Position numbers and translations under genes: made by a program. Shown here piece after piece: positions 1,301-36,815 of a DNA stretch of 36,815 nucleotides; within the stretch, counting starts at the first letter, position 1, and every line of letters begins with the position of its first letter. Source of the DNA: a virus (lineage: Duplodnaviria; Heunggongvirae; Uroviricota; Caudoviricetes); IMG/VR virus record IMGVR_UViG_2617270943_000002, positions 1 to 36,815 of that record; one strand, written 5' to 3'. The notes beneath the pieces were generated by a model. It ran no database searches and was not told where the DNA came from. It was given only the letters and a program-made list of their open reading frames with translations.

Positions 1301-1332
1301 GTGATCTTTATCGAATAATACACGAGGTGAAA

Positions 1333-14084: not shown

Positions 14085-14108
14085 GGGGGAATTACCCCCC
14101 TTTTTTTC
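14085..14108 (+). terminator. Hairpin plus T-run immediately after Q (GGGGG-AATTA-CCCCCC-TTTTTTT); overlaps the 3' end of the convergent membrane-protein gene
   Basis: Perfect G5/C5-6 stem with a 7-T run read directly. Confidence 0.55.
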
Positions 14109-17507: not shown

Positions 17508-18004
17508 TGCCTCCATCATTACGAAAAGCAGTTGCTGCTGCTATTGGTGGCGGAGCAATTGCTATAGCATCAGTGTTAATCACTGGCCCAAGTGGTGACG
17601 ATGGCCTGGAAGGTGTCAGCTACATACCATACAAAGATATCGTTGGCGTATGGACTGTATGTCACGGACACACCGGAAAAGACATCATACTCGGTAAAAC
17701 GTATACCGAAGCAGAATGCAAAGCCCTCCTGAATAAAGACCTTGCCACGGTTGCCAGACAAATTAACCCGTACATCAAAGTCGATATACCGGAAACAACG
17801 CGCGGCGCTCTTTACTCGTTCGTCTACAACGTGGGTGCTGGCAATTTCAGAACATCGACGCTTCTTCGCAAAATAAACCAGGGCGATATCAAAGGCGCAT
17901 GTGACCAGCTACGTCGCTGGATATACGCTGGCGGTAAGCAATGGAAAGGCCTGATGACTCGTCGTGAGATTGAGCGTGAAGTCTGTTTGTGGGGGCAGCA
18001 ATGA
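17507..18004 (+). CDS. R: SAR endolysin (T4-lysozyme-like glycosidase with N-terminal signal-anchor-release domain)
   Basis: Gly/Ala-rich weakly hydrophobic N-terminus [20 protein letters not shown] followed by an E...D...T catalytic arrangement ([20 protein letters not shown]); start overlaps the holin stop (TAATG). Confidence 0.8.
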
Positions 18005-18444
18005 GCAGAGTAACCGCGATTATCTCCGCTCTGATTATCTGCATCATCGTCTGCCTGTTATGGGCTGTTAATCATTACCGTGATAACGCCATCGCCTACA
18101 AAGAGCAGCGCGACAAAGCCGCATCCACTATCGCTGATATGCAGAAGCGTCAACGTGATGTAGCAGAACTCGACGCCAGATACACAAAGGAGCTTGCTGA
18201 TGCTAACGCGACTATCGAAAGTCTTCGTGCTGATGTTTCTGCTGGGCGTAAGTGGCTGCGCGTCAAAGCTGTCTGTCCAGACATGCATAAAATCACCGCC
18301 GCCTCCGGCGTGGATGATGGCACCAGCCCCAGACTTACTGACACCGCTCAACGGGATTATTTCACCCTTAGAAAGCGGATTGAAACCAGTGATAAAATGA
18401 TCCGAGGCTTGCAGCAATACATTCGCACGCAGTGTGTAAGATGA
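18001..18444 (+). CDS. Rz: Rz-like inner-membrane spanin
   Basis: N-terminal TM segment ([18 protein letters not shown]), coiled-coil-like remainder; ATG overlaps the endolysin stop (ATGA). Confidence 0.75.
18194..18400 (+). CDS. Rz1: Rz1-like outer-membrane lipoprotein spanin embedded in the +1 frame of Rz
   Basis: Signal peptide with lipobox (LLGVSGC) and a proline-rich mature region ([17 protein letters not shown]); lies entirely within Rz. Confidence 0.7.
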
Positions 18445-18824
18445 GCAATCTTTGCTAATTAGCCATGAAATAGATAAATATCAGGCCAACGATGATTAGT
18501 GCCAGGCATCCTAATTGGTCAGAATGGCTGGCATTTGATCGTCTTGCTCTTCTTGCAGTTGATTGGACAGCCCTCTGTCCTCGACTTCCTCTTGGCATTC
18601 CTCTCATTTATTCTCTCTCAACATTGATATTGAACTGACAGATGATAATTATTTCATGAAAGTGGTATCTCGTTGATTTGATTACGCTATATAGTCGCCG
18701 GATTTTCGCATTTATCGGCATCGGGCGGTGCAAAATTGGCATAATCGAAACGTAGAGTTTTTGGCTGACAACAGCATTAGCGGTCACCCGGAGAGTGTTG
18801 TGAACATGTTAATTACATGACGCT

Positions 18825-19145
18825 TTAGATGCATCGACATTTGATGATGCTTGTCAGACCTGTCATTTTCTTTGCTTCATTTTCAACATTGAGGAAGTTG
18901 GTTGAGCATATTTTTTGATAATCTCCAGTTGTGAATCCTGTTTTATCGATCTTGCGTTTCAAGGGATTAATCGTTTTGCAAGATGCTCTATGGATTCTGG
19001 TAAAGCGTTCGTCAGATTTATTACCTTTACCTCTGGTTCGCTTCAATGCATTGACAACATATCCGTCTGGATTATCGCCAAGCCAATTACGATAGTCTGA
19101 TTCACTCTCAGTCTGAAGGTCACTTCTGAATACCTTTATGGACAT
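18825..19145 (-). CDS. Hypothetical protein between the lysis cassette and cos (106 aa)
   Basis: ATG at 19145 preceded by AGGAG; no family recognised; opposite strand to flanking late genes, like a moron. Confidence 0.5.
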   Translation of the reverse strand: MSIKVFRSDLQTESESDYRNWLGDNPDGYVVNALKRTRGKGNKSDERFTRIHRASCKTINPLKRKIDKTGFTTGDYQKICSTNFLNVENEAKKMTGLTSIIKCRCI

Positions 19146-19289
19146 GAAGATACTCCTGTGCATTTATGGTACGAAGAAATAGCAAAAGTATTTTTACCGT
19201 AAATTGCGAATCTACAAAAGCAAAACAATGCGTAATATCAGAGTGAATATTCTGCCTTTAATGTGGGTCCTTCTGATGACCTGAGCTCT

Positions 19290-19312
19290 CACGGGGCGGG
19301 AGCGTCGCGGAA
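19290..19312. other. cos-like site (cosN candidate) upstream of terminase small subunit
   Basis: ACGGGGCGGGAGCGTCGCGG closely resembles the lambda cohesive-end sequence GGGCGGCGACCTCGCGG; a downstream TTCGTCAT also matches lambda; located about 180 bp upstream of the terminase small subunit gene. Confidence 0.5.
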
Positions 19313-19479
19313 AAAGGCTAGTTTTTGAAATTTCATTCGTCATCACCACTACTGTAATGTATTGATATTACAGTGGTTTTATTTTTGTGGTGTCGATTTT
19401 GATTGTTTTTTGTTCATCACTAACACCGTTTGCCTAAAGTTGTTCGCAAGATGCATGTTTAAAACATTCTGGAGCGGGT

Positions 19480-19974
19480 ATGGATCGAGAGTTAAAAAAT
19501 CTGACGCTGAATATCAGTCAACTGGCGGCACTGTCAGGTGTACATCGCCAGACTGCTGCGGCAAGGCTGCAAAATCTACCCGTTGCAGGGGGGCATGAAA
19601 GCAACCTCAAGCTTTATCGGGTGGTTGATATTGTGTCGGCATTTCTGGCATTACCACCGCCGGTTGCAGAAGGCGAAATGGACGCGCATGAGCGCAAAGC
19701 CTGGTATCAGTCTGAACGTGAGCGTCTTAAGTTCGAACAGGAAACGGCACAACTCATTCCGGCCAGTGATGTCAGACGGGAGTTTGCCATCTGGGCAAAA
19801 GCGGTCGTGCAGGTGCTGGAGACATTACCGGATATTCTTGAACGTGACTGCGGTCTGCAGCCTGCCGCTGTGAGCCGTGTTCAGTCCATTATTGATGATC
19901 TGCGCGATCAGATAGCCCTGCGGGTGACCGAAGCAGGTGCGGATGATGAGGAGGAATTACAGCGGGAGGAGTAA
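19480..19974 (+). CDS. Terminase small subunit (Nu1-like position, HTH N-terminus)
   Basis: 164-aa ORF immediately upstream of, and coupled to, the terminase large subunit gene (stop/start overlap TAATG). Confidence 0.7.
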   Translation: MDRELKNLTLNISQLAALSGVHRQTAAARLQNLPVAGGHESNLKLYRVVDIVSAFLALPPPVAEGEMDAHERKAWYQSERERLKFEQETAQLIPASDVRREFAIWAKAVVQVLETLPDILERDCGLQPAAVSRVQSIIDDLRDQIALRVTEAGADDEEELQREE

Positions 19975-22076
19975 TGCTGAATCAGGAAACCGCAAAGGCA
20001 GCACGAACCGATTCAGGTTATATCCTTCGCGCACCGAGACGAATGCGGGTTGCTGATGCCGTTGCTCAGTATATGCGGGTGCCCATGGGGGCAGGGAACT
20101 CAGTCCCGTGGGATCCGCTGGTGGCACCGTATGTTATTGAGCCGATGAACTGCCTGGCCTCGCGTGAATACGACGCAGTGATATTTGTTGGCCCGGCACG
20201 AACCGGCAAGACTATCGGCCTGATTGACGGCTGGGTGATTTACAACGTGATTTGCGATCCTGCTGATATGCTGATCATACAGATGACGGAGGAAAAAGCC
20301 CGCGAACACTCCAAAAAACGACTCGCCAGAACGTTTCGCGTCAGCCCGGAAGTGGTCAGTCGCCTGAGTCCGAACAAAAATGACAACAACGTTTATGACA
20401 GAACATTCCTTGCTGGTAACTACCTGAAAATCGGCTGGCCGTCAGTCAATATCATGTCCTCATCAGATTATAAATGCGTCGCGCTGACGGATTATGACCG
20501 TTTTCCGGAAGATATTGATGGCGAGGGGGATGCTTTCTCTCTTGCCTCAAAACGTACCACAACATTTATGTCCAGTGGTATGACGCTTGTGGAGAGTTCC
20601 CCCGGCAGGGATGTGAAGGATGTGAAATGGCGACGGACTTCACCGCATGAGGCTCCACCAACCACGGGGATACTGTCGCTCTATAACCGTGGCGATCGCC
20701 GTCGCTGGTACTGGCCTTGTCCACACTGTGGTGAGTATTTTCAGCCCTGCGGCGATGTGGTTGCTGGTTTCCGTGATATTGCCGATCCCGTGCTGGCAAG
20801 TGAGGCGGCTTATATTCAGTGTCCTTCCTGTTCAGGACGGATTATGCCTGAACAAAAACGTGAGCTGAACGGACGTGGGGTCTGGTTGCGGGATGGTGAA
20901 TCCATCAATGCGGATGGCAGTCGTTATGGTGATCCCCGACGCTCACGTATTGCGTCATTCTGGATGGAGGGTCCGGCAGCTGCTTACCAGACACTCTCGC
21001 AACTCGTTTACAAACTGCTTACTGCAGAACAGGAATACGAGACAACCGGAAGTGAAGAAACACTCAAGACGGTTATCAATACCGACTGGGGATTACCTTA
21101 TCTTCCCCGCGCCAGCATGGAGCAACGAAAAAGTGAACTGCTTGAGCAGCGGGCAGAGCCAGTTCCTTCCCGCAGTGTGCCGGATGGCGTTAATTTCCTT
21201 GTGGCGACAGTGGATGTGCAGGCGGGACGTCATCGCCGTTTTGTGGTTCAGGTAACGGGCTATGGCAGCCGTGGCGAACGCTGGATTATTGATCGTTACA
21301 ACATCACGCAGTCATTGCGCGGTGACAGCGACGGGGAGAGCCAGCGAATTGATCCGGCCAGCTATCCGGAAGACTGGGATGTCCTGCTGACGGATGTTTT
21401 TCATAAAAGCTGGCCGCTGGCCTCCGATCCTTCTCAACAAATGCGACTGATGGCAATGGCGGTGGACTCCGGCGGTGAAGACGGGGTCACTGATAATGCC
21501 TATAAATTCTGGCGTCGTTGCCGTCGTGATGGCCTTGGTAAACGTATTTACCTGTTTAAGGGCGACAGCATCCGGCGCGCAAAACTGATCACCCGTACAT
21601 TCCCTGATAACACCGGACGAACGGGCCGACGGGCGCAGGCCGCAGGTGATGTGCCGCTCTGGCTTCTTCAGACGGATGCACTGAAAGACCGGGTGAATAA
21701 CGCGTTATGGCGTGACTCGCCAGGTCCCGGCTATGTGCATTTCCCTGACTGGCTGGGGAGTTGGTTTTACGACGAACTGACGTATGAAGAGCGGAGCAGT
21801 GACGGGAAATGGAGTAAGCCAGGTCGCGGTGCCAACGAAGCTTTTGACCTGATGGTGTATGCCGAGGCTCTGGTCATTCTGCATGGATACGAAAAGATCC
21901 GCTGGCCGGATGCACCGGAGTGGGCGAGCCGGGAAACCTGGCTGGAGTGTGTCCCGGACAGTACCGAACCGTCACCCACACCGGAACCGGTATCCACGCC
22001 TGTTAAAAAACAAAAACGGAAGAAAACAGTAACTGACGATGTTAACCCCTGGCTGACTTCCGGAGGATGGTTATGA
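19974..22076 (+). CDS. Terminase large subunit (lambda gpA-like)
   Basis: 700 aa; Walker-A-like VGPARTGKT; WYWPCPHCGEYFQP parallels the lambda gpA CPHCGE motif. Confidence 0.85.
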   Translation: MLNQETAKAARTDSGYILRAPRRMRVADAVAQYMRVPMGAGNSVPWDPLVAPYVIEPMNCLASREYDAVIFVGPARTGKTIGLIDGWVIYNVICDPADMLIIQMTEEKAREHSKKRLARTFRVSPEVVSRLSPNKNDNNVYDRTFLAGNYLKIGWPSVNIMSSSDYKCVALTDYDRFPEDIDGEGDAFSLASKRTTTFMSSGMTLVESSPGRDVKDVKWRRTSPHEAPPTTGILSLYNRGDRRRWYWPCPHCGEYFQPCGDVVAGFRDIADPVLASEAAYIQCPSCSGRIMPEQKRELNGRGVWLRDGESINADGSRYGDPRRSRIASFWMEGPAAAYQTLSQLVYKLLTAEQEYETTGSEETLKTVINTDWGLPYLPRASMEQRKSELLEQRAEPVPSRSVPDGVNFLVATVDVQAGRHRRFVVQVTGYGSRGERWIIDRYNITQSLRGDSDGESQRIDPASYPEDWDVLLTDVFHKSWPLASDPSQQMRLMAMAVDSGGEDGVTDNAYKFWRRCRRDGLGKRIYLFKGDSIRRAKLITRTFPDNTGRTGRRAQAAGDVPLWLLQTDALKDRVNNALWRDSPGPGYVHFPDWLGSWFYDELTYEERSSDGKWSKPGRGANEAFDLMVYAEALVILHGYEKIRWPDAPEWASRETWLECVPDSTEPSPTPEPVSTPVKKQKRKKTVTDDVNPWLTSGGWL

Positions 22077-22285
22077 ACCAGAATGATATCGAAGCCATGA
22101 TTCAGCGTTATACGGAAGCTGAAATGGCGGTGCTGGACGGAAAATCCGTCACCTTTAATGGTCAGCAGATGACCATGGAAAACTTATCTGAGATCCGGCA
22201 GGGGCGGCAGGAGTGGGAGCGCCGCCTTGCGGCTCTGATTACACGACGACGGGGGCATCCCGGGTACCGGCTGGCGAGGTTCTGA
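22073..22285 (+). CDS. W: Head-tail joining protein gpW-like
   Basis: About 70 aa with C-terminal ...RRRGHPGY resembling the lambda gpW C-terminus (...RRRGPAGF); GGAGG RBS. Confidence 0.6.
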   Translation: MNQNDIEAMIQRYTEAEMAVLDGKSVTFNGQQMTMENLSEIRQGRQEWERRLAALITRRRGHPGYRLARF

Positions 22286-23760
22286 TGGTAATTCTTGATG
22301 ATGTGATTGGCGTTTTTTCACCAGGATGGAAAGCGGCAAGGCTGCGTTCCCGTGCGGTGATCCAGGCTTATGAGGCCGTAAAAACGACGCGGACACACAA
22401 AGCCCGGCGGGAAAACCGAACTGCCGACCAGTTAAGCCAGTACGGGGCCGTGTCGTTACGTGAGCAGGCCCGTTACCTTGATAACAACCACGATCTGGTC
22501 ATTGGTGTATTTGACAAGCTGGAAGAACGGGTGGTGGGGAAAAACGGGATTATTGTCGAGCCACATCCGGTATTACGCAATGGGGCCATTGCCCGTGACC
22601 TGGCTGCGGAGATTCGCACCCGATGGAGTGAATGGTCTGTCAGCCCGGAAGTCACCGGGCAGTTTACCCGTCCGATGCTGGAACGTCTGATGCTGCGTAC
22701 CTGGCTGCGCGATGGTGAGGTGTTTGCCCAGATGGTTTCCGGGCGCATAAACAGCCTGACGCCTTCTGCCGGTGTTCATTTCTGGCTGGAGGCACTCGAG
22801 CCGGACTTTATTCCCATGACCAGTGATGAGAGCAACAGGCTGAATCAGGGCGTGTTTGTTGATGACTGGGGGCGTCCCGAAAAATATCTGGTGTATAAAA
22901 GTCGTCCCGTATCCGGACGGCAGATGGAAACCAAAGAAGTGGATGCAGAGCGAATGCTGCATCTTAAATTTGTTCGCCGTCTGCACCAGATGCGCGGGAC
23001 GTCTTTGTTGTCCGGTGTGCTGATCCGCCTCAGTGCCCTGAAAGAGTATGAAGATTCTGAGCTGACTGCAGCAAGGATCGCCGCTGCTCTGGGGATGTAC
23101 ATCCGGAAAGGCGACGGGCAGAGCTATGAACCGGATGGTAATGGCAGCAAGGATAAGGAACGCGAGCTTACCATTCAGCCAGGCATTATTTACGACGATC
23201 TGAAACCCGGCGAAGAAATCGGAATGGTGAAGTCGGATCGTCCCAATCCTAACCTTGAAACTTTTCGTAATGGTCAGTTGCGTGCCGTGGCGGCGGGCAG
23301 TCGTCTGAGTTTTTCCAGTACGGCACGCAACTATAACGGCACTTACAGCGCCCAGCGTCAGGAGCTGGTTGAATCCACTGATGGCTACCTGATCCTGCAG
23401 GACTGGTTTATTGGTGCCGTCACCCGCCCGATGTATCGTGCCTGGCTGAAACAGGCTGTGGCATCCGGTGTTATCAGGCTACCCCGCGATCTTGACCGTT
23501 CTTCACTGTATACCGCGGTGTATTCCGGACCGGTGATGCCGTGGATTGACCCTGTTAAGGAGGCTGAGGCCTGGAAAATTCAGATTCGTGGTGGAGCGGC
23601 GACAGAATCAGACTGGGTACGTGCAGGTGGTCGTAATCCGGATGATGTCAAACGTCGGCGCAAGGCCGAAATTGATGAAAACCGCAAGCTGGATCTGGTA
23701 TTTGATACCGATCCGGCCAGTGATAAAGGAGGCAGCAGTGCCGCAACGAAACGACAGTAG
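22285..23760 (+). CDS. Portal protein (lambda-family)
   Basis: About 490-aa ORF following gpW; ATG overlaps the W stop (TGATG). Confidence 0.8.
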   Translation: MVILDDVIGVFSPGWKAARLRSRAVIQAYEAVKTTRTHKARRENRTADQLSQYGAVSLREQARYLDNNHDLVIGVFDKLEERVVGKNGIIVEPHPVLRNGAIARDLAAEIRTRWSEWSVSPEVTGQFTRPMLERLMLRTWLRDGEVFAQMVSGRINSLTPSAGVHFWLEALEPDFIPMTSDESNRLNQGVFVDDWGRPEKYLVYKSRPVSGRQMETKEVDAERMLHLKFVRRLHQMRGTSLLSGVLIRLSALKEYEDSELTAARIAAALGMYIRKGDGQSYEPDGNGSKDKERELTIQPGIIYDDLKPGEEIGMVKSDRPNPNLETFRNGQLRAVAAGSRLSFSSTARNYNGTYSAQRQELVESTDGYLILQDWFIGAVTRPMYRAWLKQAVASGVIRLPRDLDRSSLYTAVYSGPVMPWIDPVKEAEAWKIQIRGGAATESDWVRAGGRNPDDVKRRRKAEIDENRKLDLVFDTDPASDKGGSSAATKRQ

Positions 23761-25765
23761 CCGCAGCACACCGACGACCAGTCCGAAGAATAATTCCTGG
23801 TTCAGGATGCAGGCTGGTCACCAGAGTGACGCGGATATTTATATTTATGACGAGATTGGTTTCTGGGGTGTTACAGCGAAGCAGTTTATCAGTGATCTGA
23901 ATGCACTGGGCGATATCACCCACATTAATCTCCATATCAATTCACCGGGTGGCGATGTCTTTGAAGGCATCGCCATTTTTAATGCACTGAAAACACATGG
24001 TGCGTCCATTACCGTTTATGTCGACGGTGTGGCGGCGTCAATGGCGTCGGTCATTGCGATGGTGGGAAACCCGGTCATTATGCCGGAAAACACCTTCATG
24101 ATGATTCATAAACCATTTGGCTTTACGGGCGGTGATGCGGAGGACATGCGCACCTATGCCGACCTGCTCGATAAGGTTGAGGCGGTTCTGTTACCCGCTT
24201 ATGCACAGAAAACCGGGAAAACCACCGATGAAATTGCTGCCATGCTGGCAGATGAGACCTGGATGTCCGGTGCCGAATGTCTGGCACATGGATTTGCTGA
24301 TCAGGTGACGCCAGCCGTTAAGGCAATGGCATGTATTCAGTCAAAACGTACAGAGGAATTTAAAAAGATGCCGGAATCCATTCGAAACATGATTACTCCG
24401 CCACGCAACAGTGCTCCACGCGTACAGGATGATGAACCTGCAGCCTCCCGGACGCCAGTACAGGCAGCAGCACCCGTGGTGGATGAAAACAGTATCCGTG
24501 CGCAGGTACTGGCAGAGCAAAAAGCGCGTGTAAACGGTATTAATGATCTGTTTGCCATGTTTGGCGGGCGTTATCAGACGCTGCAGGCTCAGTGTCTTGC
24601 CGATCCTGAATGTTCGCTGGAGCAGGCCCGCGAAAAGCTGTTGAACGAGATGGGGCGCGAGTCCACGCCATCCAATAAAAATACACCGGCTCATATTTAT
24701 GCCGGTAACGGTAATTTTGTGGGGGACGGGATCCGCCAGGCGCTGATGGCGCGTGCCGGATTTGAAAAAACCGAACGTGATAATGTCTACAACGGGATGA
24801 CCCTGCGTGAATATGCCCGTATGTCACTGACTGAACGGGGTATTGGGGTTTCCAGTTATAACCCGATGCAGATGGTCGGTGCGGCGTTCACACACAGTAC
24901 GTCTGACTTCGGTAATATTCTGCTGGATGTTGCGAACAAAGCCATTCTGCAGGGCTGGGAAGATGCCCCTGAAACCTATGAACAGTGGACGCGGAAAGGT
25001 CAGTTGTCTGATTTTAAAATTGCCCATCGTGTGGGTATGGGGGGCTTCAGTGCTCTGCGTCAGGTGCGTGAAGGGGCGGAATATAAATACGTCACCACCG
25101 GAGATAAACAGGCCACTATTGCACTGGCGACCTATGGCGAGCTGTTCAGTATCACCCGTCAGGCCATTATCAATGATGATCTGAATATGCTGACCGATGT
25201 CCCGATGAAGCTGGGCCGTGCGGCGAAATCCACTATTGCCGATCTGGTTTATGCCATTCTGACGTCTAACCCGAAAATCTCCACAGATAATGTAAGTCTG
25301 TTCGATAAAGCGAAACATGCAAACGTACTGGAGAGCGCTGCAATGGACGTGGCATCGCTGGATAAAGCCCGCCAGTTGATGCGCGTTCAGAAAGAGGGGG
25401 AGCGTCATCTGAATATTCGTCCTGCGTTCGTACTGGTACCGACGGCGATGGAGTCTGTTGCTAACCAGGTCATTCGCTCCTCAAGTGTCAAGGGGGCTGA
25501 CATTAACGCCGGTATTATTAACCCGGTGAAAGATTTTGCGACCGTTATTGCAGAGCCTCGTCTTGATGATAACAGCCAGACCACCTTCTACCTGGCTGCG
25601 TCAAAAGGCTCCGATACGATTGAAGTGGCTTATCTCAACGGTGTGGATACGCCATATATTGATCAGATGGAGGGCTTCAGTGTGGATGGCGTGACAACGA
25701 AAGTGCGTATTGACGCCGGTGTCGCGCCAGTTGATCACCGCGGTCTGGTGAAATGTACGGCGTAA
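23738..25765 (+). CDS. Prohead protease (ClpP-like, S14) fused to HK97-fold major capsid protein
   Basis: N-terminal ClpP-like region (INSPGGDVFEGIAIFNAL..., VDGVAASMASVIAMVG, MMIHKP); long C-terminal capsid-like region; proposed GTG start at 23738 with AAGGAGG RBS 5 nt upstream (first in-frame ATG is at 23807). Confidence 0.75.
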   Translation: MPQRNDSSRSTPTTSPKNNSWFRMQAGHQSDADIYIYDEIGFWGVTAKQFISDLNALGDITHINLHINSPGGDVFEGIAIFNALKTHGASITVYVDGVAASMASVIAMVGNPVIMPENTFMMIHKPFGFTGGDAEDMRTYADLLDKVEAVLLPAYAQKTGKTTDEIAAMLADETWMSGAECLAHGFADQVTPAVKAMACIQSKRTEEFKKMPESIRNMITPPRNSAPRVQDDEPAASRTPVQAAAPVVDENSIRAQVLAEQKARVNGINDLFAMFGGRYQTLQAQCLADPECSLEQAREKLLNEMGRESTPSNKNTPAHIYAGNGNFVGDGIRQALMARAGFEKTERDNVYNGMTLREYARMSLTERGIGVSSYNPMQMVGAAFTHSTSDFGNILLDVANKAILQGWEDAPETYEQWTRKGQLSDFKIAHRVGMGGFSALRQVREGAEYKYVTTGDKQATIALATYGELFSITRQAIINDDLNMLTDVPMKLGRAAKSTIADLVYAILTSNPKISTDNVSLFDKAKHANVLESAAMDVASLDKARQLMRVQKEGERHLNIRPAFVLVPTAMESVANQVIRSSSVKGADINAGIINPVKDFATVIAEPRLDDNSQTTFYLAASKGSDTIEVAYLNGVDTPYIDQMEGFSVDGVTTKVRIDAGVAPVDHRGLVKCTA

Positions 25766-25788
25766 ACGTCGCAGACAACAACTCTGAT

Positions 25789-25808
25789 GGCCCGTAAGGG
25801 CTTTTTTT
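25789..25808 (+). terminator. Rho-independent terminator after the capsid gene
   Basis: GCCC-GTAA-GGGC stem-loop followed by TTTTTTT. Confidence 0.6.
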
Positions 25809-25851
25809 GTACCTGAAATCAGCCCCTGAACGGGGCTGTGCGGAGACAGTT

Positions 25852-26175
25852 ATGGCAAAGAATTTTGTAGAAGAAGGAAAAACGGTGGCGATTGTTGCCA
25901 GTGCAGCCATCAGCAGCGGAGATCTGGTGCAGGTGGGTGATGTTTTTGCGGTGGCGCTGACCGATATTCCACAGGGTGAAACAGGCGACGGCATGACCGA
26001 AGGTGTGTTTATGCTGCCTAAGCTGAAAACGGATGACATGAAAACGGGTAAGAAGGTTTATCTGAAGTCCGGAAAAGTTCAGCTGACTAACAGCGGCTCT
26101 GATCCGCTGGTCGGGGTTGTCTGGGCAGATGCCGGAACCAGTGCAGAAGAAGTGCCGGTAAAACTCAATGTCTGA
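25852..26175 (+). CDS. DUF2190-like head protein (108 aa)
   Basis: ATG 25852 with GGAGA RBS; pattern (...SGDLVQVGDVFAVAL...EGVFMLPK...G.KVYL...) typical of DUF2190 proteins found next to capsid genes. Confidence 0.55.
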   Translation: MAKNFVEEGKTVAIVASAAISSGDLVQVGDVFAVALTDIPQGETGDGMTEGVFMLPKLKTDDMKTGKKVYLKSGKVQLTNSGSDPLVGVVWADAGTSAEEVPVKLNV

Positions 26176-26511
26176 TCCCTTTTCCCGGCTGGCAGCGCGT
26201 ATGGATGCGATCACGGTTAGAAAGATGGGAAAGACAGCCTCGATTAATGATGCCGATATGACTGTGATCCCGGGAGAAACACTGGCAGAGCTGAATGCTC
26301 TGTCCGGACCTGCGGTATCTCTGGTGGTGTTTTCTTCGGGATGGCGATGTTTGCCCCGCAGTACAACATCGAGATCAATAACGATGGCACGAACGGGCAG
26401 ATAGGTCCGGCTGCCCTGAAGGTGGTTTATGACCTTGGGAAAAAAGCGGCAGCGGACTTTATGCAACAGCAGGCCCGTGATGGTGGTCGGTTAAGTGGAG
26501 CATATCGGTAA
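26168..26511 (+). pseudogene. Deletion junction: 5' portion of a small head/tail gene joined out of frame to the 3' end of the tail tape-measure gene (gpH C-terminal remnant)
   Basis: Frame A ORF 26168..26404 (MSDPFSRLAARMDAITVRKMGK...); a second frame, open from 26251 to the TAA at 26509-26511, encodes ...FAPQYNIEINNDGTNGQIGPAALKVVYDLGKKAAADFMQQQARDGGRLSGAYR, matching the lambda gpH C-terminus (...INNDGTNGQIGPAALKAVYD...); stop overlaps the gpM start exactly as H/M do in lambda. Confidence 0.55.
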
Positions 26512-26840
26512 TGGAGACGTTTCACTGGAAAGTGCGCCCGGATATGAATGTGGTATCAGAGCCGAAAGTGGTGACAGTGAAGCTGGGCGATGGTTATGAA
26601 CAGCGTCGTGCGGCGGGACTGAATAACCAGTTGTCGATTTACAGCGTGACGATACGTGTTCGTAAATGTGAACACCCATCTTTAAAAGCCTTTCTGGAAC
26701 GGCACGGTGGCGTCCGCGCATTTCAGTGGGCGCCACCTTATGACTGGAAGCCGATCAGGGTGGTTTGTCGTAAATGGTCGGCAAGCGTGGGGGCGTTGTG
26801 GGTAACCATAACGGCAGATTTTGAACAGGTCGTGGCATAG
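26511..26840 (+). CDS. M: Minor tail protein M
   Basis: 109 aa, near-colinear with lambda gpM (METFHWKVRPDMNVVSEPKVV...GDGYEQRRAAGLN...EFEQVVA). Confidence 0.9.
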   Translation: METFHWKVRPDMNVVSEPKVVTVKLGDGYEQRRAAGLNNQLSIYSVTIRVRKCEHPSLKAFLERHGGVRAFQWAPPYDWKPIRVVCRKWSASVGALWVTITADFEQVVA

Positions 26841-26849
26841 GAGTCTCTG

Positions 26850-27548
26850 ATGCAGGATATTCCACAGGAAACACATCATGAGACGACACGCCTCACTCAG
26901 TCAGCCCAGGTGGTGCTCTGGGAAATCGACCTGACAGAGGTCGGTGGAGAACGTTATTTTTTCTGTAATGAGCAGAACGAAAAAGGTGAGCCGGTTACCT
27001 GGCAGGGGCGGCAGTATCAGGCATACCCCATTCAGGGGACGGGATTTGAACTGAACGGCAAGGGCAGTGCTGCCCGTCCGACACTGACGGTTTCTAACCT
27101 GCACGGCATGGTCACGGGGATGGCGGAAGACCTGCAGAGTCTGGTCGGCGGAACGGTGGTCAGGCGTAAGGTTTACGCCCGTTTTCTGGATGCGGTGAAC
27201 TTCGTCAACGGAAACAGCGACGCCGATCCGGAGCAGGAGGTGATCAGCCGCTGGCGCATCGAGCAGTGCAGCGAACTGAGTGCGGTCAGTGCCTCCTTTG
27301 TGTTGTCCACACCGACGGAAACGGATGGTGCCGTTTTTCCGGGGCGCATCATGCTGGCTAATACCTGCACCTGGACCTATCGCGGTGATGAGTGCGGTTA
27401 TCACGGTCCGGCTGTCGCGGATGAATATGATCAGCCGACGTCCGATATCACGAAGGATAAATGCAGCAAATGCCTGAGTGGCTGTAAGTTCCGCAATAAT
27501 GTCGGCAACTTTGGCGGCTTCCTTTCCATTAACAAACTTTCGCAGTAA
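26850..27548 (+). CDS. L: Minor tail protein L
   Basis: 232 aa, lambda gpL-like, including the C-terminal Cys cluster. Confidence 0.9.
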   Translation: MQDIPQETHHETTRLTQSAQVVLWEIDLTEVGGERYFFCNEQNEKGEPVTWQGRQYQAYPIQGTGFELNGKGSAARPTLTVSNLHGMVTGMAEDLQSLVGGTVVRRKVYARFLDAVNFVNGNSDADPEQEVISRWRIEQCSELSAVSASFVLSTPTETDGAVFPGRIMLANTCTWTYRGDECGYHGPAVADEYDQPTSDITKDKCSKCLSGCKFRNNVGNFGGFLSINKLSQ

Positions 27549-27553
27549 ATCCC

Positions 27554-28297
27554 ATGACAGAGACAGAATCAGCGATTCTGGCGCACGCCCGGCGATGTGC
27601 GCCAGCGGAGTCGTGCGGCTTCGTGGTGAGAACGCCGGAAGGGGAAAGATATTTTCCCTGCGTGAATATCTCCGGTGAGCCGGAGGCGTATTTCCGGATG
27701 TCGCCGGAGGACTGGCTGCGGGCAGAGATGCAGGGTGAGATTGTGGCGCTGGTCCACAGCCACCCCGGTGGTCTGCCCTGGCTGAGTGAGGCTGACCGGC
27801 GGCTGCAGGTGCAGAGTGATTTGCCGTGGTGGCTGGTCTGCCGGGGGACGATTCATAAGTTCCGCTGTGTGCCGCATCTCACCGGGCGGCGCTTTGAACA
27901 CGGGGTGACGGACTGTTACACGCTGTTCCGGGATGCTTATCATCTGGCGGGGATTGAGATGCCGGATTTTCATCGCGAGGATGACTGGTGGCGTCACGGT
28001 CAGAATCTCTATCTGGATAATCTGGAGGCCACAGGGCTGTATCAGGTGCCGTTGTCATCAGCACAACCGGGCGATGTGCTGCTGTGCTGTTTTGGTTCAT
28101 CGGTGCCGAATCATGCCGCCATTTACTGTGGTGATGGCGAGCTGCTGCACCATATTCCTGAACAACTGAGCAAACGAGAGAGGTATACCGACAAATGGCA
28201 GCGACGCACACACTCCCTCTGGCGTCACCGGGCATGGCGCGCATCTGCCTTTACGGGGATTTACAACGATTTGGCCGCCGCATCGACCTTCGTGTGA
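27554..28297 (+). CDS. K: Tail assembly protein K (JAB/MPN plus NlpC/P60-like domains)
   Basis: HSHPGG (JAB-type) motif and a downstream Cys/His region; lambda gpK-like; 3' end as given by the ORF track overlaps gene I. Confidence 0.85.
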   Translation: MTETESAILAHARRCAPAESCGFVVRTPEGERYFPCVNISGEPEAYFRMSPEDWLRAEMQGEIVALVHSHPGGLPWLSEADRRLQVQSDLPWWLVCRGTIHKFRCVPHLTGRRFEHGVTDCYTLFRDAYHLAGIEMPDFHREDDWWRHGQNLYLDNLEATGLYQVPLSSAQPGDVLLCCFGSSVPNHAAIYCGDGELLHHIPEQLSKRERYTDKWQRRTHSLWRHRAWRASAFTGIYNDLAAASTFV

Positions 28298-28866
28298 AAA
28301 CGGGGGCTGAAGCCATTCGGGCGCTGGCCACACAGCTCCCGGCGTTTCGTCAGAAACTGAGCGACGGCTGGTATCAGGTACGGATTGCCGGGCAGGATGT
28401 CAGCACGTCCGGATTAACGGCGCAGTTACATGAGACTCTGCCTGATGGCGCTGTGATTCATATTGTTCCCAGAGTCGCCGGGGCCAAGTCAGGTGGCGTA
28501 TTCCAGATTGTCCTGGGGGCTGCCGCCATTGCCGGATCATTCTTTACCGCCGGGGCCACCCTTGCAGCATGGGGGGCAGCCATTGGGGCCGGTGGTATGA
28601 CCGGCATCCTGTTTTCTTTCGGTGCCAGTATGGTGCTCGGTGGTGTGGCGCAGATGCTGGCACCGAAAGCCAGAACTCCCCGTACACAGACAACGGATAA
28701 CGGCAAACAGAACACCTATTTCTCCTCACTGGATAACATGGTTGCCCAGGGCAATGTTCTGCCGGTTCTGTACGGTGAAATGCGCGTGGGGTCGCGGGTG
28801 GTCTCTCAGGAGATCAGCACGGCAGACGAAGGGGATGGTGGTCAGGTTGTGGTGATTGGTCGCTGA
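28195..28866 (+). CDS. I: Tail assembly protein I
   Basis: 223 aa, lambda gpI-like with a Gly/Ala-rich hydrophobic centre; start may be at a downstream ATG (e.g. 28234). Confidence 0.8.
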   Translation: MAATHTLPLASPGMARICLYGDLQRFGRRIDLRVKTGAEAIRALATQLPAFRQKLSDGWYQVRIAGQDVSTSGLTAQLHETLPDGAVIHIVPRVAGAKSGGVFQIVLGAAAIAGSFFTAGATLAAWGAAIGAGGMTGILFSFGASMVLGGVAQMLAPKARTPRTQTTDNGKQNTYFSSLDNMVAQGNVLPVLYGEMRVGSRVVSQEISTADEGDGGQVVVIGR

Positions 28867-28884
28867 TGAAAAACGTTTATGTGA

Positions 28885-28904
28885 AACCGCCTCCGGGCGG
28901 TTTT
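28885..28904 (+). terminator. Weak hairpin (AAACCGCC-TCCG-GGCGGTTT) between I and J
   Basis: Stem read directly; short T-run; may be an RNA structure rather than a terminator. Confidence 0.3.
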
Positions 28905-28925
28905 GTCGTTTATGGAGCGTGAGGA

Positions 28926-31900
28926 ATGGGTAAAGGCAGCAGTAAGGGGCATACTCCGCGCGAAGCGAAGGACAACCTGAAGTCCACGCAGTTGCTGAGT
29001 GTGATCGATGCCATCAGCGAAGGGCCGGTTGAAGGTCCGGTGGATGGATTAAAAAGCGTGCTGCTGAACAGTACGCCAGTGCTGGACAGTGAGGGGAATA
29101 CCAATATCTCCGGCGTCACGGTGGTGTTCCGGGCCGGTGAGCAGGAGCAGACACCGCCGGAGGGATTTGAATCCTCCGGCTCCGAGACGGTGCTGGGTAC
29201 GGAAGTGAAATACGACACGCCGATCACCCGGACCATCACGTCGGCAAACATTGACCGACTGCGTTTTACCTTCGGCGTGCAGGCACTGGTGGAAACCACC
29301 TCAAAGGGGGACAGGAATCCGTCGGAAGTCCGCCTGCTGGTTCAGATCCAGCGTAATGGTGGCTGGGTGACGGAAAAAGACATCACCATTAAGGGCAAAA
29401 CCACCTCGCAGTATCTGGCCTCGGTGGTGGTGGGTAACCTGCCGCCGCGCCCGTTCAATATACGGATGCGCAGGATGACACCGGACAGCACCACAGACCA
29501 GCTGCAGAACAAAACGCTCTGGTCGTCATACACCGAAATCATCGATGTGAAACAGTGCTACCCGAACACGGCACTGGTCGGCGTGCAGGTGGATTCGGAG
29601 CAGTTCGGCAGCCAGCAGGTGAACCGTAATTATCATCTGCGCGGGCGCATTCTGCAGGTGCCGTCGAACTATAACCCGCAGACGCGGCAATACAGCGGTA
29701 TCTGGGACGGAACGTTTAAGCCAGCATACAGCAACAACATGGCCTGGTGTCTGTGGGATATGCTGACCCATCCGCGCTACGGCATGGGGAAACGTCTTGG
29801 TGCGGCGGATGTGGATAAATGGGCGCTGTATGTCATCGGCCAGTACTGTGACCAGTCGGTGCCGGACGGTTTTGGCGGCACGGAGCCGCGCATCACCTGT
29901 AATGCCTGGCTGACCACACAGCGCAAGGCGTGGGATGTGCTCAGTGATTTCTGCTCGGCGATGCGCTGTATGCCGGTATGGAACGGGCAGACGCTGACGT
30001 TCGTGCAGGACCGACCATCAGATAAGGTGTGGACCTATAACCGCAGTAATGTGGTGATGCCGGATGATGGCGCGCCATTCCGCTACAGCTTCAGCGCCCT
30101 GAAGGACCGCCATAATGCCGTTGAGGTGAACTGGATTGACCCGAATAACGGCTGGGAGACGGCGACAGAGCTTGTGGAGGACACGCAGGCCATTGCCCGT
30201 TACGGTCGTAACGTCACGAAGATGGATGCCTTTGGCTGTACCAGCCGGGGGCAGGCACATCGCGCCGGGCTGTGGCTGATTAAAACAGAACTGCTGGAAA
30301 CGCAGACCGTGGACTTCAGCGTGGGCGCAGAAGGGCTTCGCCATGTGCCGGGCGATGTCATTGAAATCTGTGATGATGACTATGCCGGTATCAGCATCGG
30401 CGGGCGCGTGCTGGCGGTAAACAGCCAGACCCGGACGCTGACGCTCGACCGTGAAATCACGCTGCCATCCTCCGGTACCACGCTGATAAGCCTGGTTGAC
30501 GGAAGTGGCAATCCGGTCAGCGTGGAGGTTCAGTCCGTCACCGACGGCGTGAAGGTGAAAGTGAGCCGTGTTCCTGACGGCGTTGCTGAATACAGCGTGT
30601 GGGGGCTGAAGCTGCCGACGCTGCGCCAGCGCCTGTTCCGCTGCGTGAGTATCCGTGAGAACGACGACGGCACGTATGCCATCACCGCCGTGCAGCATGT
30701 ACCGGAAAAAGAAGCCATCGTGGATAACGGGGCGCACTTTGACGGTAACCAGAGCGGCACGGTGAATGGTGTCACGCCGCCAGCGGTGCAGCACCTGACT
30801 GCCGAAGTCACCGCAGACAGCGGGGAATATCAGGTGCTGGCGCGCTGGGACACGCCGAAGGTGGTGAAGGGCGTGAGCTTCCTGCTCCGTCTGACCGTAA
30901 CAGCGGATGACGGCAGTGAGCGGCTGGTCAGCACGGCCCGGACGACGGAAACCACTTACCGCTTCACACAACTGGCGCTGGGGAACTACAGGCTGACAGT
31001 CCGGGCAGTAAATGCGTGGGGGCAGCAGGGCGATCCGGCGTCGGTATCGTTCCGGATTGCCGCACCGGCAGCGCCGTCGCGGATTGAGCTGACGCCGGGC
31101 TATTTTCAGATAACCGCCACGCCGCATCTTGCGGTTTATGATCCGACGGTACAGTTTGAGTTCTGGTTCTCGGAAAAGCGGATTGCGGATATCAGGCAGG
31201 TTGAAACCACAGCACGCTATCTTGGCACGGCGCTGTACTGGATAGCCGCCAGTATCAATATCGAACCGGGCCATGATTATTACTTTTATATCCGCAGTGT
31301 GAACACCGTTGGCAAATCGGCATTCGTGGAGGCTGTTGGTCAGCCGAGTGATGATGCATCCGGTTATCTGGATTTTTTCAAAGGCGAGATAGGGAAAACC
31401 CATCTGGCTCAGGAGCTGTGGACGCAGATTGATAACGGTCAGCTTGCGCCTGACCTGGCTGAAATCAGGACGTCCATTACGGATGTCAGCAATGAAATCA
31501 CGCAGACCGTCAATAAGAAACTGGAAGACCAGAGTGCGGCAATTCAGCAGATACAGAAGGTTCAGGTTGATACAAATAATAACCTGAACAGCATGTGGGC
31601 TGTGAAGCTGCAGCAGATGCAGGACGGACGCCTTTATATCGCGGGTATTGGTGCCGGTATTGAGAACACCCCTGACGGCATGCAGAGTCAGGTGCTGCTG
31701 GCGGCGGACAGGATTGCGATGGTTAATCCTGCGAATGGCAACACAAAACCGATGTTTGTTGGTCAGGGCGATCAGATATTCATGAACGACGTGTTCCTGA
31801 AACGCCTGACGGCCCCCACCATTACCAGCGGTGGAAATCCACCGGCATTTTCCCTGACTCCGGACGGAAAGCTGACCGCTAAAAATGCGGATATCAGTGG

Positions 31901-32423
31901 CAGTGTGAATGCGAACGCCGGGACGCTCAACAATGTCACGGTAAATGAAAACTGTACGATTAAGGGCATGCTGGAGGCGACTCAGGTCAGAGGTGACTTC
32001 GTTAAAGCTGTATCCAAATCATTTCCGAAACAGGCTGGTACGTGGGGTAACACGGAAACACCAAACGGGACGGTTACAGTCACCATAAGCGATGATCATA
32101 ACTTTGACCGTCAAATCATTATTCCGCCCATTATCTTTAACGGAATAGCGTATAGCGATCCGGGAAGTGGTAATAACCCGGGAGGTACAAGATACACGGG
32201 TTATGGTTTTGAAGTTCGCAAAAACGGTGTATTAATCGCATCCAGAGAAACTAAAGGGGCTATTCCCGGTAGCTACAGTGCGGTTATTGATATGCCGAGT
32301 GGCAGGGGAAGCGTCACTCTGGAGTTTAAGGTTTTCCATAAAGGCAATCAGTGGGCAGGTAATATCACCGACTGTACGGTGATTGTGACCAAAAAAGCCG
32401 CTTCCGGCATCAGTATTCGTTGA
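28926..32423 (+). CDS. J: Host specificity protein J (central tail fibre)
   Basis: 1165 aa, lambda gpJ-like throughout most of its length, with fibronectin-type repeats in the distal third. Confidence 0.9.
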
Positions 32424-32444
32424 AATTGTTATAACCCATATAAG

Positions 32445-32469
32445 GGCACCAGAAATGGTGCCTTTTTTA
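32445..32469 (+). terminator. Rho-independent terminator after J
   Basis: GGCACC-AGAAAT-GGTGCC followed by TTTTTTATT. Confidence 0.7.
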
Positions 32470-32492
32470 TTGCAGAAAAGCGAGAGGTAATT

Positions 32493-33092
32493 ATGCGTAA
32501 ACTTTATGCCGCCATTTTGTCCGCAGCCATTTGTCTGGCCGTATCCGGTGCGCCTGCATGGGCATCTGAACATCAGTCCACGCTGAGCGCGGGGTATCTT
32601 CATGCCTTGACGAACGTTCCCGGCAGCGATGATCTTAACGGGATTAACGTGAAATACCGTTATGAGTTTACGGACACACTGGGGCTGGTGACGTCATTCA
32701 GCTATGCAGGAGACAAGAATCGCCAGCTTACCCGTTACAGCGATACCCGCTGGCATGAAGATTCAGTGCGTAACCGCTGGTTCAGCGTGATGGCGGGGCC
32801 GTCTGTGCGCGTGAATGAATGGTTCAGCGCGTATGCGATGGCGGGTGTGGCTTACAGCCGTGTTTCGACTTTCTCCGGGGATTATCTCCGCGTAACTGAC
32901 AACAAGGGGAAAAAGCACGATGTGCTGACCGGAAGTGATGACGGTCGCCACAGCAACACGTCTCTGGCGTGGGGGGCTGGCGTGCAGTTTAACCCGACCG
33001 AATCCGTGGCCATTGATATTGCTTATGAAGGCTCCGGCAGTGGTGACTGGCGCACTGACGGTTTCATCGTGGGTGTCGGTTATAAATTCTGA
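32493..33092 (+). CDS. lom: Lom outer-membrane protein (Ail/Lom family beta-barrel)
   Basis: 199 aa with signal peptide; essentially colinear with lambda Lom; ends in aromatic C-terminal residue (YKF). Confidence 0.9.
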
Positions 33093-33120
33093 TTAGCCAG
33101 GTAACACAGTGTTATGACAG

Positions 33121-33146
33121 CCCGCCGGTTCAGGCGGGCTTTTTTG
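33121..33146 (+). terminator. Rho-independent terminator after lom
   Basis: CCCGCC-GGTTCA-GGCGGG followed by CTTTTTTGT. Confidence 0.65.
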
Positions 33147-33156
33147 TGGGGTGAAT

Positions 33157-36100
33157 ATGGCAGTAAAGATTTCAGGTGTACTGAAAGACGGCACAGGAAA
33201 ACCGGTACAGAACTGCACAATCCAGCTGAAAGCAAAACGTAACAGCACCACGGTGGTGGTGAACACGCTGGCCTCAGAAAATCCGGATGAAGCCGGGCGT
33301 TACAGTATGGACGTTGAGTACGGTCAGTACAGCGTTATTCTGTTGGTGGAAGGATTCCCGCCGTCACATGCCGGGACCATCACAGTGTATGAAGATTCCC
33401 GACCCGGTACGCTGAATGATTTTCTCGGTGCCATGACGGAGGATGATGCCCGTCCGGAGGCACTGCGCCGTTTTGAGCTGATGGTGGAAGAGGTGGCGCG
33501 TAACGCGTCCGTGGTGGCACAGAACACGGCAGCCGCGAAGAAGTCAGCCAGTGATGCCAGCACATCAGCCCGTGAGGCGGCAACCCATGCGACTGATGCT
33601 GCAGGCTCAGCACGCGCAGCCAGCACGTCAGCCGGACAGGCCGCGTCGTCGGCTCAGTCAGCGACTTCCAGCGCAGGAACGGCATCAACAAAGGCCACTG
33701 AAGCATCAAAAAGTGCTGCCGCTGCAGAGTCCTCAAAAAGCGCGGCAGCTACCAGTGCCAGTGCCGCGAAAACGTCAGAAACGAATGCTGCAGCGTCACA
33801 ACAATCAGCAGCCACTTCTGCATCCACCGCGACCACGAAAGCGTCAGAAGCTGCCACCTCAGCCCGGGATGCGGCGGCTTCAAAAGAGGCGGCAAAATCA
33901 TCAGAAACGAACGCATCCTCGAGCGCCAGTAGCGCAGCTTCCTCGGCAACAGCGGCAGGAAATTCCGCGAAGGCGGCAAAAACGTCAGAGACGAACGCCA
34001 GGTCTTCTGAAACGGCAGCGGGACAGAGCGCCTCGGCTGCGGCAGGCTCAAAAACAGCGGCTGCGTCGTCTGCCAGTGCAGCGTCAACAAGTGCCGGGCA
34101 GGCCTCAGCCAGTGCCACCGCCGCCGGAAAATCGGCAGAAAGCGCCGCATCGTCTGCTTCAACAGCCACAACGAAGGCTGGCGAAGCCACTGAACAGGCC
34201 AGCGCAGCAGCGAGGTCTGCTTCCGCAGCGAAGACATCCGAAACGAACGCGAAAGCGTCGGAAACCAGCGCAGAATCCTCAAAAACGGCTGCCGCATCGT
34301 CCGCCAGTTCGGCGTCGTCATCGGCATCATCTGCGTCTGCTTCAAAAGATGAGGCGACCAGACAGGCGTCAGCAGCGAAGGGTAGCGCCACGACGGCATC
34401 CACGAAGGCGACAGAGGCAGCTGGCAGTGCGACGGCAGCAGCTCAGAGCAAAAGTACGGCGGAATCTGCAGCAACGCGCGCTGAGACAGCGGCAAAACGG
34501 GCAGAGGATATTGCATCCGCCGTGGCGCTTGAGGATGCGAGCACGACGAAAAAGGGGATAGTACAGCTCAGCAGTGCGACCAACAGCACTTCCGAGTCAC
34601 TGGCGGCAACGCCAAAAGCCGTTAAGGCCGCGTATGACCTGGCTAACGGGAAATACACCGCACAGGATGCAACGACAGCACAGAAAGGGATAATCCAGCT
34701 AAGCAGCGCGACCAACAGCACGTCTGAAACGCTGGCGGCAACGCCAAAGGCAGTAAAAGCAGCCAATGACAATGCTGAGAAACGTCTGCAGAAAGATCAG
34801 AACGGTGCGGATATCCCAGGCAAAGACACCTTTACGAAAAATATTGGTGCCTGCCGTGCCTTCGGTGGGTCAGTAAGCACAACAACAGGAAACTGGACGA
34901 CTGCACAGTTTATCGAGTGGCTGGATTCTCAGGGAGCATTTAACCATCCCTACTGGATGTGCAAGGGTTCCTGGTCTTATGGCAATAATAAAATCATTAC
35001 TGATACTGGCTGCGGTAATATTCATCTCGCCGGAGCTGTCATTGAAGTAATGGGGATAAAGTCAGCGATGACGATCCGCATTACCACACCGACCACCTCC
35101 ACTGGTGGTGGAACAACTAACGCCCAGTTTACCTATATTAATCACGGAACAGATTATTCACCTGGCTGGCGAAGGGACTATAACTCCAGAAATAAGCCAA
35201 CGGCATCAGAGATCGGGGCGTTACCGTCAGGTGGAACAGCAGTATCATCAGTTAATCTGTCTTCAAAAGGTCGGGTAACCGCGCTGACAGACAATACGCA
35301 GGGGGCAACAGGTCTTGAGTTATACGAGGTGTATAACAACGGATATCCAACAGCGTATGGAAATATCATTCACCTGAAAGGGATGACAGCCGTTGGCGAA
35401 GGTGAGTTACTCATCGGCTGGAGTGGTACAAGCGGTGCTCATGCTCCGGCATTTATTCGTTCACGACGGGATACGACCGACGCAAACTGGTCGCCGTGGG
35501 CGCAGCTTTACACCTCGGCTCATCCTCCTGCAGAGTTTTATCCAGTCGGTGCACCAATCCCGTGGCCATCAGATACCGTTCCGTCTGGTTATGCCCTGAT
35601 GCAGGGGCAGACTTTTGACAAATCTGCATACCCGAAACTTGCAGCCGCTTATCCGTCAGGCGTGATCCCTGATATGCGTGGCTGGACGATTAAGGGCAAA
35701 CCTGCCAGTGGTCGCGCCGTATTGTCTCAGGAACAGGACGGCATTAAATCGCACACCCACAGCGCCAGCGCATCCAGTACGGATTTGGGGACGAAAACCA
35801 CATCGTCGTTTGATTACGGAACCAAATCCACGAATAACACCGGGGCGCATACCCATAGTATTAGCGGGACCGCAAATAGTGCCGGTGCGCACCAACACAA
35901 GAGTTCCGGTGCATTTGGTGGCACGAACACGAGCATTTTTCCTAATGGTTATACTGCGATTTCAAATCTAAGCGCGGGGATTATGAGCACAACAAGCGGT
36001 ACTGGCCAGACTCGTAATGCAGGGAAGACATCATCAGATGGTGCTCATACCCACTCACTGTCCGGCACTGCTGCAAGCGCAGGTGCACACGCACATACTG

Positions 36101-36231
36101 TCGGTATTGGTGCTCATACGCACTCCGTTGCGATTGGTTCACATGGACACACCATCACCGTTAACGCTGCTGGTAACGCGGAAAACACCGTCAAAAACAT
36201 CGCATTTAACTATATTGTGAGGCTTGCATAA
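33157..36231 (+). CDS. stf: Side tail fibre protein Stf (mosaic; extended Ala/Ser-rich shaft and His-rich distal tip)
   Basis: N-terminus [80 protein letters not shown] and C-terminal ...[29 protein letters not shown] are lambda-Stf-like; ATG 33157 (GTG 33151 also possible). Confidence 0.85.
34552..34780 (+). repeat. Direct duplication of about 100 bp (129-bp period) within stf, encoding two copies of the motif KGI(V/I)[11 protein letters not shown](S/T)[11 protein letters not shown]
   Basis: Two near-identical DNA segments starting near 34552 and 34681. Confidence 0.8.
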
Positions 36232-36815
36232 TGGCATTCAGAATGAGTGAACAACCACGGACCATAAAAATTTATAATCTGCTGGCCGGAACTAATGAAT
36301 TTATTGGTGAAGGTGACGCATATATTCCGCCTCATACAGGTCTGCCAGCAAACAGTACCGATATTGCACCGCCAGATATTCCGGCTGGCTTCGTGGCTGT
36401 TTTCAACAGTGATGAGTCATCGTGGCATCTCGTTGAAGATCATCGGGGTAAAACGGTTTATGACGTGGCTTCCGGCAACGCGTTATTTATTTCTGAACTC
36501 GGTCCGTTACCGGAAAATGTTACTTGGTTATCGCCGGAAGGGGAGTTTCAGAAGTGGAACGGCACAGCCTGGGTGAAAGATGCAGAAGCAGAAAAACTAT
36601 TCCGGATCCGGGAGGCGGAAGAAACAAAAAACAGCCTGATGCAGGTAGCCAGTGAGCATATAGCGCCACTTCAGGATGCTGTAGATCTGGAGATCGCAAC
36701 GGAGGAAGAAACCTCATTGCTGGAAGCCTGGAAAAAATATCGGGTGTTGCTGAACCGTGTTAATACAACAACTGCACCGGATATTGAATGGCCAACAGTA
36801 CCCATTATCGAATAG
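36231..36815 (+). CDS. tfa: Tail fibre assembly protein Tfa
   Basis: 194 aa, lambda Tfa-like ([58 protein letters not shown]...); start overlaps the stf stop. Confidence 0.9.

Follow-up and report, generated by a model that had tools for sequence, protein, structure and literature searches.

The window, by which we mean the whole stretch of 36,815 nucleotides analysed here, contains the head, packaging and tail-tip genes of a lambdoid prophage, with a deletion junction lying between the genes for the head and those for the tail tip. The features that bear on this junction are as follows, the first five genes having been identified from gene calls and Pfam.

19480-19974, plus strand: small terminase
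19974-22076, plus strand: large terminase
22073-22285, plus strand: gpW-like gene
22285-23760, plus strand: portal
23738-25765, plus strand: ClpP-protease/major-capsid fusion
25852-26175, plus strand: head cement/decoration gene (DUF2190, PF09956; Pfam 9e-21), intact, 107 aa
26168-26404, plus strand: chimeric ORF of 78 codons, of which codons 1-58 belong to the gene at the FII position and the last 20 are out-of-frame tape-measure DNA
26341-26342, no strand: deletion junction with a 2-bp microhomology, AT; 5,506 bp missing relative to E. coli MB56
26343-26511, plus strand: tape-measure remnant, last 56 codons and stop (residues 969-1024 of 1024)
26511-26840, plus strand: M (PF05939)
26850-27548, plus strand: L
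27554-28297, plus strand: K
28294-28866, plus strand: I
28926-32423, plus strand: J
32493-33092, plus strand: lom
33157-36231, plus strand: stf
36231-36815, plus strand: tfa, full length, of the att-lambda/bio-side type

The frames of the head and packaging module (19480-25765) are all open and specify proteins that are 98.6-99.7% identical to those of phage phi458, and the cement protein is 100% identical to its MB56 counterpart. On the far side of the junction M, L, K, I and J follow each other in the lambda order with full-length frames (PF05939, PF05100, PF00877/PF14464, PF06805 and the J domains). The original prediction had described M, L, K, I, J, lom, stf, tfa, terminase, portal and capsid as intact, and all of these reading frames are indeed of full length. 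An integrase, a repressor/cro region, replication genes, Q and a lysis cassette, together with the terminase, portal and capsid genes, were found in the gene calls and in the annotation of the MB56 prophage. A pair of GC-rich hairpins occupies the space between the capsid and cement genes (25785-25848; GGCCCGTAAGGGC followed by a T run, then CAGCCCCTGAACGGGGCTG), and these resemble terminators within a late operon.

The end of the cement gene (26175) and the start of M (26511) are separated by 335 bp, in good agreement with the ~350 bp estimated previously for the interval between the capsid/DUF2190 genes and gpM. The same interval had been read as the start of a small structural gene followed, in a different frame, by the C-terminus of a lambda gpH-like tape measure, and we find 58 codons of the former and 56-57 of the latter. 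The ORF at 26168-26404 begins at its native ATG, which overlaps the cement gene stop, and its residues 1-58 correspond to profile positions 1-60 of 91 in the head-tail protein family PF13856 ("Gifsy-2") / phrog_153; in its undeleted form this FII-position head-tail gene has 91 codons, of which the last 33 have been lost. The AT at the junction sits within an imperfect match between TTCGGGAT and TTCAGGTAT (8/9, with one gap), and the frame changes there because 5506 = 3 x 1835 + 1. The second called ORF (26341-26511, 56 aa) starts at a native in-frame ATG of the tape-measure gene, in a frame that differs from that of the first; it aligns with residues 801-853 of lambda H at 60% identity (E 7e-19) and matches the tape-measure family phrog_6747 at 1.9e-33. 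Its stop overlaps the M start by one base as TAATG, and in this detail the earlier description, which equated the overlap with that of lambda, has to be corrected, since lambda uses the four bases ATGA. Both ORFs are better annotated as junction debris than as genes, with the qualification that translation of the chimeric 78-aa peptide is probable, since its start is still coupled to the cement gene in the native way.

When window positions 25700-27000 were compared by megablast with 5,426 complete E. coli genomes and with phage records, the matches split cleanly into a left part ending at query base 643 and a right part starting at base 636, and no record in these collections joins the two parts as they are joined in the window. 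A near-identical prophage occurs in E. coli MB56 at the same chromosomal site beside yjjG. There are 13 differences between the two prophages over window 1-20083 and three mismatches in the 8,343 bases of window 18000-26342 (99.96% identity), and the identity over window 26335-36793 is 98.3%. Between the bases that correspond to window 26342 and 26343, MB56 has 5,506 additional bases that contain the final 33 codons of the FII-position gene, the genes Z, U, V, G and T, and tape-measure codons 1-967, so that 94% of the 1024-codon H gene is missing from the window. Each of the MB56 proteins Z, U, V, G, T and H has its homologue in lambda (E 1e-15 to 1e-99).

Phage phi458 is viable, gives plaques and produces particles with long tails. 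It shares the head module of the window (99% nucleotide identity) and has a full Z-U-V-G-T-H set; it is 99.15% identical to window 19290-26342, and relative to its genome the window is short of ~5,504 bp. The gene order cement, FII-position, Z, U, V, G, T, H, M, L, K, I, J, lom is shared with phi458 and with the mEp460 / cdtI / PhiR47-type phages, and in mEp460-type phages the H end plus M is 98-99% identical to the window. All of these phages are complete, whereas the window is without the 5.5 kb that begin midway through the FII-position gene and end at H codon 967. In phage lambda the tail genes Z-U-V-G-T-H-M-L-K-I-J have the same order and encode homologous proteins (25-54% identity), but the head is of another type, with C/Nu3/D/E in place of a protease-capsid fusion and a cement protein, and lambda H has 853 aa as against 1024 aa in the type represented by the window.

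These comparisons place the junction at 26341-26342 against both MB56 and phi458, as the original prediction had proposed that alignment to relatives should do, and its central claim, that an internal deletion took the tail-shaft module, is upheld base by base against the twin at the same chromosomal site and again against a viable phage. As a further check, seven MB56 proteins were used as tblastn queries against the whole 36.8-kb window, where a shaft gene at some other position within it would have been seen. H matched just its last 57 residues (E 6e-31); Z, U, G and T had no tblastn match anywhere in the 36.8 kb, and V had one 42-residue, 29%-identical chance match (E 0.09) and nothing else there, leaving two remnants as the whole yield of the search. 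Both lines of comparison thus agree that U, V, G, T and, save for its C-terminus, H are absent between the head genes and M, and that the window has neither Z nor any G/GT at that position; the loss of Z, and that of the final third of the FII-position gene, are additions to the earlier list.

We consider it very probable that the locus records a single recent 5.5-kb deletion in a lambdoid prophage beside yjjG, that is, ordinary decay rather than a selected architecture. One event of illegitimate recombination at the 2-bp microhomology would have fused the FII-position gene, at codon 58, to the tape measure at codon 968/969, and would thereby have taken out the end of the former gene, Z, U, V, G, T and nearly all of H.

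The tip complex of lambda (J, I, L, K) becomes an initiator only with H, G/GT and M, V polymerises on the initiator, and U and Z complete the tail; without H and V there is no tail. By analogy, a J-I-L-K-M tip complex that has neither H, G/GT and V nor U and Z could not be extended into a tail, and judged in this way the prophage is unable to make a tail shaft by itself. Compared with complete relatives it has lost an essential particle function, the shortfall being 5,506 bp when measured against MB56 and ~5,504 bp against phi458. The element had been called probably defective, and with lambda tail assembly as the guide this holds for autonomous particle production, though it does not extend to particles made with help. 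If lambda is a valid model, excision, replication, cell lysis and the filling of heads are the most that could follow induction, and Lom and other cargo genes would be expected to stay expressible. In E. coli O157 Sakai, defective prophages can obtain tails from lambdoid prophages in the same cell (PMC2669165), so that "defective" does not equal "immobile", and by the same analogy a co-resident may rescue the present prophage through the provision of tails or through recombinational repair. For annotation, the prophage should be flagged as incapable of making its own tail.

The MB56 twin has a lesion of its own, an amber codon in the V gene (L003 9444-10187; TGG to TAG, W86*), and this prophage is probably itself defective by virtue of that change. 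The lineage may accordingly have been tail-defective before the deletion took place, in which case the deletion may be a consequence rather than the cause of defectiveness. A separate observation concerns the prophage of E. coli MS10495 (L001 6744-6800; 94% identity), in which an independent shaft deletion of ~4.5 kb runs from Z codon 12 to the middle of the tape measure with a TGAAC microhomology and the FII-position gene is intact.

The contig that contains the window, JNPK01000019.1 of assembly GCA_000703725.1, has features at its flanks that call for separate comment. To the left of the window (L020, L030) lie rsmC, holD, rimI and yjjG, and to the right of tfa a GGDEF gene, ybhB, bioA, bioBFCD and uvrB; both flanks run clockwise on the K-12 map, from which it follows that a genuine join would delete ~840 kb. 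The switch from MB56-like to att-lambda-type sequence falls within ~36,100-36,560, a stretch of ~460 bp in stf/tfa that is common to both types. The tfa gene and what lies downstream of it belong to an att-lambda/bio-side element, so that the "element" may be hybrid at its right end or chimeric there through assembly; probably the contig is a chimera, or else the chromosome has been rearranged between two prophages. The switch is ~10 kb to the right of the deletion, which it leaves unaffected.

A join of this kind, between loci ~840 kb apart by way of a short shared stretch, looks like an error of repeat resolution, and it means that the assembly is not above suspicion. The deletion junction, moreover, is known from this one draft assembly only, and one could suppose that it is an artefact of assembly or library preparation and that the strain actually has an intact tail module. 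We regard this as quite improbable. The two sides of the junction share 2 bp (8/9 when a gap is allowed), so that repeat collapse during assembly cannot explain it, and a k-mer or overlap assembler would have needed reads that span the junction; independent assemblies, furthermore, have equivalent junctions at the same right-hand base. The reading to which we give even less credence is that the deletion produced a functional, selected derivative, whether as a head-only or tip-only element that borrows the tails of a helper or as a domesticated cassette of tail-tip genes and lom. In its favour are the head, lysis, regulatory, tail-tip, lom and fibre genes that are still open, the loss of the shaft genes with retention of M through J in other prophages as well, and the packaging and transfer of defective lambdoid prophages with help from others (PMC2669165). 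Against it, a private deletion with 99.96%-identical flanks leaves too little time for selection, the head-tail joining gene, on which the use of borrowed tails would depend, is itself truncated, and two junk ORFs have been left behind. The left ends of the related deletions are also scattered and hit terminase, portal or capsid genes too, which is a pattern of decay.

The distribution of the junction points to recent decay. The protein of the fused ORF has an exact match in that single contig only, and searches for the junction 27-mer in the 5,426 complete E. coli genomes, and in collections of genomes, viruses and metagenomes, gave no hit. On this sequence evidence the deletion is best taken as recent and private, since the junction is found in a single assembly and its flanks are almost identical to those of an undeleted twin. 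Of the two words in the earlier characterisation, "domesticated or decaying", the second therefore fits the recent, single-assembly event and the first finds no support: a domesticated element would be expected to show the same truncation conserved across strains under purifying selection, and the related deletions have other left ends.

The type of event is already known as ordinary prophage decay, and it can be compared with other elements that are lacking in tails. Capsid-forming phage-inducible chromosomal islands are tail-less and hijack the tails of helper phages. Like them the window encodes heads and cannot make tails, but in contrast to these islands, which measure ~10-15 kb and lack tail and lysis genes by design, it belongs to a lambdoid prophage of full size, 36.8 kb or more, in which lysis genes, Q and a repressor region are present along with the complete set of tail-tip and fibre genes; its loss is a private deletion, whereas theirs is a conserved design. 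A closer likeness exists to the cryptic prophages of Sakai and K-12, in which morphogenesis genes have been hit by deletions, frameshifts or IS elements and cargo genes have been kept, as in the window. Some of the defective prophages of E. coli O157 Sakai (Sp4, Sp6, Sp9 and others) are still mobilised with help (PMC2669165). The difference is one of age, in that the Sakai and K-12 elements are long-degraded remnants and the window has a single, clean and very recent deletion. It thus provides a clean and datable case of how prophage decay begins, and one that can be compared with an undeleted twin.

Related deletions were sought with the 56-aa remnant and short homologues as queries for exact matches, whereby the same remnant was found to abut different left partners. 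The right end in the window (GGTAT/GGCG, with the slash marking the break) is reused, within one base, in unrelated deletions of related prophages. Those that end at (T)AT/GGCG have the following left partners.

L035: large terminase
L036/L039: mid tape measure
L037: a 68-bp capsid fragment
L164: Z codon 45, in frame
L162: early region

A second right site, GGATA/TTGG, lies 16 bases upstream and was found in five loci, namely L033 (left partner portal gene), L007 (T), L165 (lysis genes), L058 and L068, the last two of which came from a position-unbiased pattern scan; the break in L166 is ~3 bases upstream of this site. A third, GGGTAT/GGG, is common to L148 and L156. Relative to the remnant ATG the right-hand break points thus lie at -1, -16 and -686 (window 26325-26345 for the nearest), and of the three GGTATGG sites that the tape-measure gene contains, two are the recurrent ends. 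Several loci have undergone two to four serial deletions and contain short filler fragments of 68 and 97 bp. Small intragenic deletions (591, 348, 615 and 1332 bp; L033, L098, L156) are exact multiples of three in length, and this may reflect the occurrence of TA in codon-phased Gly-Tyr contexts.

The junctions show a preference for TA microhomology in a GG-N-TA-YCC / GG-TA-NGG context (P 1e-4 to 1e-8 overall, with loci that include L098). TA is present within the microhomology at 11 of 23 junctions as against 0.96 expected (P < ~5e-6; 0 of 200,000 simulations reached 11), and at 5 of 15 versus 0.53 expected when each right site is counted once (P 6e-5). The TA of the left sites is followed by CC (TACC) in 10 of 19 cases, compared with 7% of all phage TA (P 2e-7); GG stands just 5' of TA in 16 of 29 (background 14%, P 2e-7) and, at right sites, just 3' in 7 of 10 (background 13%, P 5e-5).

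Such regularities raise the question of whether the deletion in the window, instead of being a generic accident, came about by a site-preferring break and rejoining at GG-N-TA followed by YCC on the left or NGG on the right, in which case break points would be expected to pile up at GGTATGG or GGATATTGG and at TA-YCC left sites. The agents that might be imagined are a TA-cohesive recombinase or nuclease, template switching at a stall site, and end joining after a site-preferring break. The pairing of the same right ends with different left partners speaks for this idea, as do the enrichments of TA, TACC and the GG context (P 6e-5 or lower in the TA/TACC/GG-rich tests). The exact-protein look-ups, on the other hand, detect only breaks within ~24 bases of the remnant ATG, so that the apparent hot spot is inflated; pattern scans of the viral and metagenome collections gave none that was new at the site used in the window and two (L058, L068) at -16. 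The junction in the window, furthermore, uses AT and is one base out of the TA register, no IS element is present at the sites in 160 loci, and the sites do not match a known enzyme specificity. We therefore treat site preference as a tentative possibility, and as doubtful for the event in the window; it would leave the consequence for the prophage unchanged. The wider proposition, that one sequence-preferring activity makes most of the inactivating deletions in this group, the present one included and often with several cuts per prophage, seems to us unlikely. If it were true it would imply a specific or dedicated route of prophage disarmament, encoded by the host or by phages, in place of generic replication slippage, and recurrent TA-centred break points that were upheld in an unbiased census would point to a specific mechanism of prophage inactivation.

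Several more familiar sources of recurrent ends were considered and rejected. We know of no TA-centred motif at the fixed ends of IEE/IS-associated elements. Deletions associated with IEE and transposases occur beside members of the IS629, IS1 and IS30 families and have short microhomology and a far end that varies while the other is fixed (PMC9943667), a pattern that would explain the recurrent right ends; they differ from the present group in that no IS was found near the break points in any of the 160 related loci, the sole insertion being in the HNH gene of L028. Protection of ends by Chi does not apply, as the Chi-like TGGTGG is wrongly oriented to protect the retained side, nor does a mosaic boundary between tape-measure alleles, since homology to lambda H begins 32 bases downstream of the break and prophages of the att-lambda type align from gene L onward only. 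The gyrase rule YRT/GNYNNY fits TAT/GGCGAT at the site in the window and fails at the other sites. Common descent of the junctions is contradicted by left flanks that differ up to the break itself. Short database proteins annotated as "tape measure, partial" (P0001, P0004-P0006; L008-L014) were not accepted as deletions, many of them being products of contig edges or frameshifts, and contigs frequently break within the tape-measure gene.

Two other regions of the window contain ORFs of some interest. Beside the integrase, an ORF on the plus strand (1327-3939) combines a dsRNA-binding motif (PF00035) with an HNH_2 nuclease domain (PF13391). It specifies 868-880 aa among strains and in PADLOC matches HNH models only; a 1-base indel splits it in MB56, as does an IS element in L028. 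Between the Q antiterminator and a DNA methyltransferase, two ORFs of 308 and 182 aa lie on the opposite strand (14092-15553, minus strand); searches of Pfam and PADLOC gave nothing for either, the larger matches phrog_2802 (function unknown), and their location is a typical moron position.
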